This document shows positions 11,610-14,600 of a stretch of 64,000 nucleotides of DNA, piece by piece. A program made the position numbers and the translations under genes. How positions within the stretch are numbered: position 1 is the stretch's first letter; every line of letters starts with the position of its first letter. The DNA is taken from the NCBI GenBank assembly GCA_020137815.1, contig CM035359.1, positions 1,178,001-1,242,000 on the forward strand, in the 5' to 3' direction. This stretch comes from Hormiphora californensis (lineage: Eukaryota; Animalia; Ctenophora). Under the pieces are notes generated by a model. The model saw only the letters and a list, made by a program, of their open reading frames with translations. It did not search any database and had not been told where the DNA came from.

Positions 11610-14600
11610 TCACCTGCTCTTGTAAGAGGATGAGTCTCTGTTTTGCAGGGACAGCCCGAAGAAAGGGTGTTTTGTAGCTTGTGGAGCAGTCATTCGGTCT
11701 TTGGTTTGGTACTGAAGGAGTCCTCGCATCAGCTCTGAAAGAGGGTTGTGTGAGTTTAAGGTCTGGTGGGGGTGGGCGAGGTCTAAAAAGTCACTTTCGA
11801 TACTGTGTCGAAACTCTAAAGGATGATACAAATAGGTTGTGTAAGTGATTACAGAAAGGGGAACTACATATATTAACCCATTAGTGCCCAGATATCGAAA
11901 TTTTTGAAGAATTTTTCCAATTTTTTGGGAATAGTACTAAGTACCCTAGCAGCACCAATATGGTAAGTTGAAAAGCGGAAGTCTCTATCTTATCGGGAAG
12001 TGCTTAAAACAACCTGTTGCGAAAACGCATCACTGGCACGTCCCATTTTCGCAACACTTTTCAAAGTCATTTTACAGCTAAAATTCTAATGCAATCATTT
12101 TAAAATTTCACTTAACAGACTTCAATCTATTATAAAAATAGTTTGTGATATCTAGTTTTTGTCTCCAGGCAAGTTTAAATTTCGTTGCGTTTTCGCAACA
12201 ACATTCGGAGCCTGTTTACAGCTAAACATTCAATAATTTTTTTCTAACTAAGTTATTATTGGCATTCTAGTAATAGTGGAAATAGTTCGTGATATTCAGA
12301 TTTAAGCTTGGGGCAGCTTAGAGTTTCGTTGCGTTTTCGCAACACCTCATTCGACAGCAAATCTGGCCATCTCGTACAGTGTTTTTGATTTCTATACTAC
12401 TGAGCAGCACCGTAAAGGTCTTACTACGGTATCTATGGGGAATTTGAAGGAAATCAGAAAGGTTGCGTTTCCGCAACATGCAAAAATGTCAGCAAACAGT
12501 GCCACCCTCACACCAATATAACTTCATTATGAAATAGCAGTTAAATTATCACTAAACTTGATTTGAACAGACATTGGGTGAATCATATCGATGTTGGAAG
12601 GTGGGAGATTATGTTGGATTAGAAAAGAAGGTTGAATATTTGTAAATTTGACCGAAAATTTATGAAAATATAGTGTTTGTGGGGGTATAGCCACTTTCAA
12701 GCCCATAATCATTATGTACACTCACTGGGGCGTCCTCTGAGTTGTCCGAGGTGCCTCCCGGAGACTCCTGAGAGCTCGCTGAGCCGCTCTAGATACTCCA
12801 TGAAAAGTCCTAGATACTCCATGAAACGTACTGGGACCTTCAAGGTGCTCCCTGAGTCGCCCAAGGCGCTTTCGGGGACCTCTCAAACGCTCTTTTAGGC
12901 GTCCTGGATGCCCCTTGAGTCGTCCTGAGACCTCCCAGGTACTCCCTGAGTCGTCCAGTGTACTCGGTGAGTCCTCCCACGCTCCCCTGGGTTGTTTCAG
13001 GCGCTCCCTGAGTTGTTGCTGGTACTCTCTGAGTCGTCCCAGACGATCACTGGGACCTCCTGGGTGCTCCATTTGCCGTTTTGGATGCTCCTTGATTCGT
13101 CCTGGGACATCCCAGGTGCTCCCTGAGTCGTCGACTTTGCTCGAGGAGTCCTCCCACGCTTCCCTGGGTTGTTTCAGGCGTTCCCTGAGTTGTTGCTGGT
13201 GGTCTCTGAGTCGTCCCAGACAATCACTGGGACCTCATGGGTGCTCCATTTGCCGTTTTGGATGCTCCTTGATTCGTCTTGGGACATCCCAGGTGCTCCC
13301 TGAGCACAGTGGGAACTGAGGTGGACAAATTTTTTGACAAAAATTTTTCTGTTTTTGGTTGTTTCTGATCACAAATTGTCTGGTCCGTTCAGAACAAAAA
13401 ACCGTATCAAAAAATTCCAACTTTTGTAGAAATGGTGGCATATTTTTGACGGGAATTTTAAAATCTTACATTTTGTTGCTTTAATTTGATCGTAATCATT
13501 TCTTTTCTGCATAATTATCTGATTCACTACTAAGTATGCATTAAGTTCCACCTGGTTCTTTGTTTAACACCCCGTTCCATGGAAAAAACCGCAAGAAGAT
13601 CCGAAATTTGAGAAAATTTATGTCGCGCATGCAAATTTGATGCTATTTTTAGCATATAAAAAGGCTCAATTATTTTTTTGCCGCCTTATGCCGCATATGA
13701 GTATGGTTCTATCTGATAGAGCATCTTAATACGGACATTTTGGCATAAAAATCTAGTACGGGTCGTTACGGCTTAAATTTTTATGGGCGTTTTAAGACCA
13801 AAAAATTGCCAAAAATCGGCAATTTTTCACTTTTATGTGTATTTTCCCATATACGAAATATGCATGTTTTAATCGTTATTCGTGTTTATCTTAGCCTATA
13901 CATTGTTATCAAGTGCTGTTAGAGCTAAACAAAGAATATAAAATCAATAAAATTGAAAAATGTAAAATTTTACTTATAAAATTTAATTTTTTCAAAATGC
14001 CTCTCGCGGGCCAAAATTTTCGACATAAAAGGACTCATAAGTCGTAAACGGTTGGATTTAGGGCATATGTTGCTTCATAACGCCTATATAAACATGCACA
14101 TTCCGGTCATTTTGCACCCAAAGTTGGGCTCTCTAGGACCTTCCTGGAAAAAGTTAGTTTTTTTAATTGATTAATTAATAAATTAGCTAATTTAGACGAA
14201 AATTGAGGTCCCTGAACTTCAAAACTGGTAAATTTGTTTATAAATCGACCCTTGCCTCTCTTTTTAGGTTTAATAAAACTCGTTAACTCTTGCCAGTTAA
14301 AAGTTAATAAAATTAATTAATTAATTAGTTATTATTTATTGGCAATTTTTCAAAAAATTTGTATAAATTTGCTTTATATAAGGTATGAGATCATTTAGAT
14401 CCAAAAAAGTTGTTGTAAAATCAGATAAAAAATTTGTCCACCTCGTGCAATAGAAATTCCCACTGTGCTGAGTCGTCCACTTTGCTCGAGGAGTCCTCAC
14501 ATGCTCCCCTGGGTTGTTTCAGGCGTTCCCTAAGTTGTTGCTGGTGCTCCCTGAGTTGTCCCAGACGATCACTGGGACCTCCCTTTACCGTTTTGGATGC

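Follow-up and report, generated by a model that had tools for sequence, protein, structure and literature searches.

A non-autonomous Transib-type element with terminal inverted repeats of unequal length in a ctenophore genome

Asymmetric termini in published Transibs

Transib elements that pair a short with a long terminal inverted repeat (TIR) have been described in five insect families by Kapitonov and Jurka (2005; PMC1131882). The closest of these in layout are TransibN2_AG and TransibN3_AG of Anopheles gambiae. A hand count on Fig. S4 of that article places their GGGAT block at TIR position 18 versus 28 and their A-tracts at positions 24-25 and 34-35; the short end is the 5' one. The same count gives an offset of 11 for N1_AG, and shows TransibN1_SP and N1_DP as symmetric with long ends. 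N1_AG of Anopheles gambiae, Transib2_AG and Drosophila Transib5 are further asymmetric kin, and the TIRs of the whole set are described in the same article as RSS12/RSS23-like. Ctenophores carry such elements as well. Six Transib proteins from ctenophores were reported by Tao et al. (2022; PMC9435367), who described TIRs that are all asymmetric in Subgroup I and of both kinds in Subgroup II. Transposases of Subgroup I are marked by an alpha11-12 region and a CCGHC tail; those of the classical Subgroup II lack alpha11-12, have CTT2 and group with HzTransib. Five ctenophore loci are printed, of which the three with both TIRs have an offset of exactly 10 bp by hand count. The printed sequences place the long TIR 5' of the open reading frame (ORF) in three ctenophore Transibs, and the inner block of PbaTransib_0868 starts at 14 versus 24. 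The CCGHC-type tails of Mle_3931 and Mle_2823, together with the figure legend, suggest that the published ctenophore Transibs belong to Subgroup I. Outside the Transibs, the PflRAGL-A transposon (Martin et al. 2023) and the vertebrate recombination signal sequences (RSS) combine a heptamer and an A-rich distal element with an asymmetry of about one helical turn, which is 10 bp in PflRAGL-A and 11 in the vertebrate RSS.

The element analyzed here shares this general architecture. The initial annotation had singled out its 12/23-like paired-end geometry in a possible non-bilaterian, which is no surprise given the published short/long TIRs. Neither the geometry nor its occurrence in a comb jelly is new, since the insect families were in print in 2005 and the ctenophore Transibs in 2022. 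A description of this particular family, or of any classical-type ctenophore Transib, was not found in the literature searched, a scope outside of which lie Repbase, Dfam and subscription journals; figures or tables of Tao et al. may list one.

Anatomy, genomic setting and copies of the element

The window, the whole 64,000-nucleotide stretch of DNA that was analyzed, contains a non-autonomous Transib-type element at 13305..14467 (no strand assigned; 1,163 bp, 31% GC) without a transposase remnant. It is flanked by the target-site duplication CTGAG at 13300..13304 and 14468..14472 (both plus strand). The short TIR (13305..13335, plus strand), which would be the 5' end, comprises an 11-bp outer block with the heptamer, a 2-bp linker and an 18-bp inner block. 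The long TIR (14427..14467, minus strand), the putative 3' end, has the same outer block, a 12-bp linker and an identical 18-bp inner block. Read inwards from 13305, the left end consists of CACAGTG, a 13 nt spacer and then ACAAATTTTTT; read from 14467 on the minus strand, the right end consists of CACAGTG, a 23 nt spacer and then ACAAATTTTTT. Both ends have their 11 terminal bases in common, and the perfect 18-bp inner block starts at TIR position 14 versus 24. The motif AGGTGGACAAA occupies positions 15-25 of the short TIR and 25-35 of the long TIR. ACAAA begins 13 nt (left) versus 23 nt (right) after the heptamer, as the initial annotation had described along with the coordinates, the letters and the perfect heptamer at both ends. 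The offset of the inner block between the ends is 10 bp, versus 11 for 12/23.

The two-block pattern has two matches in the window and none in 100 shuffles. CACA[GA]TG sites number five on the plus strand and six on the minus strand of the window, and only the 13305/14467 pair has a perfect 5-bp duplication. Heptamer pairs with such a duplication were absent from 200 Markov simulations of the window. The 5-bp duplication is documented for one insertion, that of the window. CTGAG is present as a single copy in the intact units at 13118 and 14630 of the tandem array into which the element is inserted, hence the empty site is known. As CTGAG is near-palindromic, the window copy taken by itself would equally allow a duplication of 3 or 1 bp. 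The CAC termini are settled by contigs of other copies, which start at 13305 and end at 14467. Both ends start with CAC and fit the Transib heptamer CACA[AG]TG. The assignment to a Transib-type element with a 5-bp duplication, made from the window alone, is thus upheld by CTGAG on both sides and by CAC termini confirmed in other copies.

The ends had also been called RSS-like with 13/23 spacing. The heptamer and the spacing stand, the nonamer gives a mixed picture, and the offset is 10 rather than 11. Read at 13/23, the "nonamer" ACAAATTTT has 5 of 9 positions in common with the RSS consensus, with AT at positions 5-6, where AA is essential. Read as 12/22, AA falls on nonamer positions 5-6 and the agreement is 3/9. 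This 12/22-type register with AA is the nonamer 5-6 register of Kapitonov and Jurka, as set out in the pertinent part of PMC1131882. The bases concerned are A24 and A25 in the short TIR and A34 and A35 in the long TIR, which corresponds to the conserved A at TIR positions 34-35 of Transibs in that register. The inner block is therefore best seen as a general distal Transib motif rather than as a vertebrate-type RSS, and this distal motif is likely the ancestor of the nonamer. Compared with PflRAGL-A and RSS, the element further has no A-rich TR2 after the heptamer and no RAG1L or RAG2L genes.

Among described elements, TransibN2_AG and TransibN3_AG are close to it. They are also non-autonomous, of similar size, with a 5-bp duplication and a CACA[AG]TGGG start, and they share an inner GGA.. 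block, the A-tract at 24-25 versus 34-35, the 10-bp offset and the register. They differ in their insect host, in the linker letters and in their inner block of GGGAT type, in a comparison made by hand and on the TIRs alone. The ctenophore elements MleTransib_2823, MleTransib_3931 and PbaTransib_0868 share the phylum, the CACAGTGGG start, the bipartite TIR and the 10-bp offset. In contrast to the element, they encode a transposase, have the long TIR 5' and are without AA in the nonamer 5-6 register. GGACAAA at 19-25/29-35 occurs in none of the eight ctenophore TIRs compared.

The element has no long ORF, and there is no RAG1L-RAG2L gene pair between its TIRs; it could still be a non-autonomous derivative of a RAGL/ProtoRAG transposon. 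A Pfam scan of seven of its short ORFs returned one sub-threshold, unrelated match. A Transib profile built from 75 homologues found nothing in the six frames of the window (best E 0.37). A weak tblastn match at 19170-19373 (E 0.30) was not confirmed.

The element splits a GC-rich tandem array of 177-bp units (12720..14815, no strand, limits approximate). The array has 56-58% GC versus 43% in the window, and the flanking pentamers seen contain G or C at 12 of 20 positions (n=4, too small a sample). Transib targets are described as GC-rich in PMC1131882. Around the array lies an outer element (11877-15602) that is bordered by TTAA left and right and has CCCATTAGTG ends in inverted orientation. 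We take this outer element to be piggyBac-like on the strength of its TTAA/CCC hallmarks. It contains facing GTTGCGAAAACGCA-type motif repeats (about 12012-15251), the array and the Transib copy, making the locus nested three or four deep. Within the Transib copy, an internal motif (14046..14127, no strand) is common to other, far more abundant repeats judging by contig depth. Summed contig depth is 12,000-28,000 in the bin 14064-14104 versus roughly 70-450 in most other bins; these depths are not taken as copy numbers. The contig depth of 14046-14127 is 50- to 250-fold that of the rest of the element, with many unrelated flanks in both organism labels introduced below. The motif is likely a module common to several transposon families.

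Elsewhere in the window, TRP-channel-like ORFs lie at 58384-60035, with only four relatives found. For the ORF at 58387-59688 the best relative has 75% identity and the fourth 36%, both from Pleurobrachia bachei. The suggestion of a non-bilaterian host is supported by this best match, which makes a ctenophore likely on the evidence of one gene. Exons of a protein kinase lie at about 15600-17000 (minus strand). Those at 30031-33015 (minus strand) encode PSP and DUF382 domains, presumably of an SF3B2-like splicing factor. Non-LTR retrotransposon-like ORFs, some of them broken, were assigned by eye from endonuclease and reverse-transcriptase-type motifs at 34106-39004 and 45002-46748 (both minus strand) and at 60998-63655. 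The window further contains many MITE-like inverted repeats (1-2900, 5868-6828, 9573-10564) and five occurrences of a 110-bp repeat.

Copies elsewhere were sought in public sequencing runs. Twenty runs were listed (organism labels A and B, and some metagenomes), of which 18 contain part of the element. Six were examined, namely X1, X5 and X2 (organism A), X8 and X10 (organism B) and the RNA run X12. Runs with small word shares were left out (X6, X7, X9, X11, X13-X18). Contigs collapse copies and drop rare variants, and one contig per run spans the short TIR. With this resolution, the short end is gap-free in all five DNA runs examined (X1, X5, X2, X8, X10) and across both organism labels. Cover of the left end in X2, X8 and X10 begins at 13305 (13304 in X8), with no substitution listed before 13343. 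The long end is gap-free in both runs with an end contig among those listed, X1 (14226-14467) and X8 (14365-14468; 13 letters different from the window copy). X5 and X10 have depth at the long end and no indel row listed. All 12 indels listed are internal and none falls in a TIR. The RNA run X12 has no contig over the left end, which carries no weight as evidence of absence.

Further gap-free contigs cover 13305-13653 in X1 and 13305-13716 in X5. Two organism A contigs stop exactly at the terminus, as expected where flanks branch. The left flanks differ among X2, X8 and X10, and X5 has the left flank of the window itself. The family is hence dispersed as expected of a Transib, with different sites in X2, X8, X10 and window/X5. 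Having the window's left junction, X5 may be the source of the window. The lack of the window junction in X1 is not read as an insertion polymorphism, because X5 also lacks the right junction. The window copy differs at 16 of 919 letters from three long X1 contigs and at 10 of 770 from two long X5 contigs, which is 1.3-1.7% from collapsed contigs. Organism B copies (X8, X10) are about 87-96% alike to the window element, with an interior difference of about 4-13%. The likeness between A and B could stem from horizontal transfer as well as from a recent common ancestor. In X2, a contig connects 13412 directly with sequence that matches 14274-14301. An internally deleted derivative would have such a junction, which points to a subfamily of about 300 bp.

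Classical relatives and the likely partner enzyme

Two elements with known classical transposases carry the exact motif in register. The 3' TIR of SlaTransib_8058, as printed in the supplement of Tao et al. 2022 (PMC9435367), has AGGTGGACAAA at 25-35, the register of the long end. SlaTransib_8058 has a classical transposase ORF, and one of its TIRs is known. The second, L006, has the motif at 15-25 of its 5' TIR, the register of the short end. L006 (349-3228) is an apparently intact classical Transib with a 659-aa open frame and a GC-rich flank. Its transposase matches HzTransib 6PQN (E 1.8e-102) with no match to RAG1. Its nearest named relatives are Hydra proteins (48-58%), and its protein cluster has 82 members. 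No ctenophore names were found among 75 homologues of the enzyme, most of them without a name, in a search that scored only the 7,991 candidates with the greatest word overlap, and no relatives were found in viral contigs. In contrast to the element, L006 encodes its transposase, and it has no interior DNA similarity to the element; again one TIR is known.

It was by the motif that L006 was chosen, its gap of 5 lies at the limit of the allowed 5-15, and its 3' TIR lies beyond the contig. The strict two-block pattern had no match in viral, metagenome or prokaryote genome contigs. The relaxed pattern (gap 5-15) matched no viral, three genome and seven metagenome loci, and L006 is the only one of these ten that encodes a Transib by tblastn. 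L010, a short-register match, was dropped as it is set among bacterial ribosomal-protein-like ORFs, a context which shows that the pattern also matches by chance. L007 was dropped for an imperfect duplication between facing heptamer ends about 1 kb apart. At 183-1184 it has two facing CACAGTGGG ends, GC-rich flanks and the motif at 23-33 on one end, and it is possibly a Transib-type MITE with another register. The remaining loci, for which the checks made showed neither a facing partner end nor a Transib ORF, were dropped as well.

We suggest that the element is a non-coding Transib-type copy with a short and a long TIR. A classical HzTransib-like transposase, encoded at another place in the genome, was likely responsible for moving it. 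The motif registers of L006 and SlaTransib_8058 point to such a partner and to a short end that lies 5', a polarity resting on the TIRs. No transposase linked to the TIRs was found in the window, and no joint or long contig in the runs leads to one. Transib and RAG enzymes nick, cleave by hairpin formation at the heptamer border and insert with a 5-bp stagger. The transposase would act in trans and bind both outer and inner blocks. The inner GGACAAA block may provide a further protein contact that corresponds to the RSS nonamer. Displaced by one helical turn, this block would still face the same side of the double helix at either end, and offsets of about 10 bp might survive because the inner block stays in helical phase. 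The short end would mark the 5' side and the long end the 3' side.

Whether the transposase prefers a short plus long pair is close to a toss-up. The rival reading, slightly short of an even chance, is functional and compatible with either enzyme: the offset was inherited and is not enforced, with the transposase reading mainly the outer 11-17 bp, or each end alone, and following no 12/23-like rule. Symmetric long/long families with a similar inner motif do transpose, judging from the TIRs printed for TransibN1_SP, N1_DP and HovTransib_9086. The relevant passages of PMC4840297 report that RAG1 without RAG2 loses the 12/23 rule, and that transposition by HzTransib alone worked with 12/12 RSS pairs and failed with 12/23 pairs, which counts against our best explanation. 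Invertebrate RAGL was proposed to be relatively insensitive to asymmetry (Martin 2020, in the portion of PMC7204232 concerned with it). Enforcement, on the other hand, is favored by offsets that cluster at 10-11 bp in unrelated families, and by a short end and a long-end length kept in two organism labels despite about 4-13% interior difference. ProtoRAG prefers an asymmetric pair according to the section of PMC8289069 that covers it. A functional role of Transib asymmetry is proposed in the corresponding passage of PMC8355894, and the relevant passages of PMC4411706 add nothing on asymmetry.

A rather unlikely rival concerns the enzyme itself, which could be closer to RAG1, either a Subgroup I ctenophore-type Transib or a RAG1L-RAG2L transposon. 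In that case one would expect the long end on the 5' side. The host lineage yielded the six Transib proteins of Tao et al. (PMC9435367), and Subgroup I is asymmetric throughout. The 10-bp offset recurs in 3/3 readable ctenophore elements, and the 14 versus 24 of PbaTransib_0868 is as here. Asymmetric bipartite TIRs are present in the element as in Subgroup I, but they also occur in some Subgroup II elements and are thus undiagnostic. GACA at 20-23 is common to the element, MleTransib_2823 and MleTransib_6236. Its position at 20-23/30-33 in MleTransib_2823 means that the TIR type is no clean subgroup marker. Against such an enzyme, ctenophore inner blocks are of the GCTATATTAGG or ATGACATTAAG types without AA at 24-25/34-35, whereas the 11-base exact in-register match occurs in classical elements. 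RAGL TIRs are moreover described as A-rich right after the heptamer (Martin et al. 2023; PMC8355894), where the element has GG. A partner of classical HzTransib type, rather than one especially close to RAG1, appears more likely from these TIR comparisons. The initial annotation had implied a recently active RAG1-like transposase. Fairly recent activity is plausible given the low divergence and the several flanks, but an enzyme especially close to RAG1 is the less likely part.

A private indel of the window copy, or an assembly slip, is a very improbable source of the 10-bp difference: the window contains a single copy and contigs may miss rare variants, but linker lengths are kept in diverged copies at other sites, which makes the offset a feature of the family, and published families (TransibN2_AG, N3_AG) have an equal register. 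The symmetric or variable spacers that would have refuted the initial annotation thus did not turn up in the contigs of other copies. CACTA and Chapaev elements have 2-4 bp target duplications. Another CAC-ended superfamily of this kind with a 3-bp duplication, which the near-palindromic target permits in the window copy, is highly unlikely, as the first base of other copies is 13305, preceded by T or C, and the last is 14467, and as the TIR motif recurs in elements that have a Transib ORF.

Implications for Transib diversity and paired-end rules

The origin of the 12/23 rule, in the transposon's own ends or in the later RAG2, is still argued (Martin et al. 2023; relevant parts of PMC8355894 and PMC4840297). 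In the literature searched, no paper was found in which an asymmetric-TIR Transib was assayed on its own ends, and Martin 2023 names such assays as wanted. The family is young, its heptamer is perfect and its TIR falls cleanly into two blocks, so that it would be a good substrate if a cognate enzyme were found. Should the 3' TIR of L006 turn out to be long, its transposase would be a candidate for assays on asymmetric ends. The element alone does not open the 12/23 question, since an equal test is already available with those mosquito and ctenophore elements whose transposases are known.

What is new is a small point: the inner block and the likely polarity appear to match the classical HzTransib type (L006, SlaTransib_8058) and not the published ctenophore elements. 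Chances are marginally better than even that ctenophores carry a classical-type Transib lineage, one not represented among the five ctenophore loci of Tao et al. 2022 compared, as judged from terminal motifs. It is improbable, if worth stating, that a second, classical-type ctenophore lineage has a RAG2-free transposase that both reads the nonamer-like block and enforces short plus long pairing. If true, an early-branching lineage of animals would have a 12/23-like rule that a single protein enforces. The element's own addition is probably a second Transib TIR type in ctenophores.
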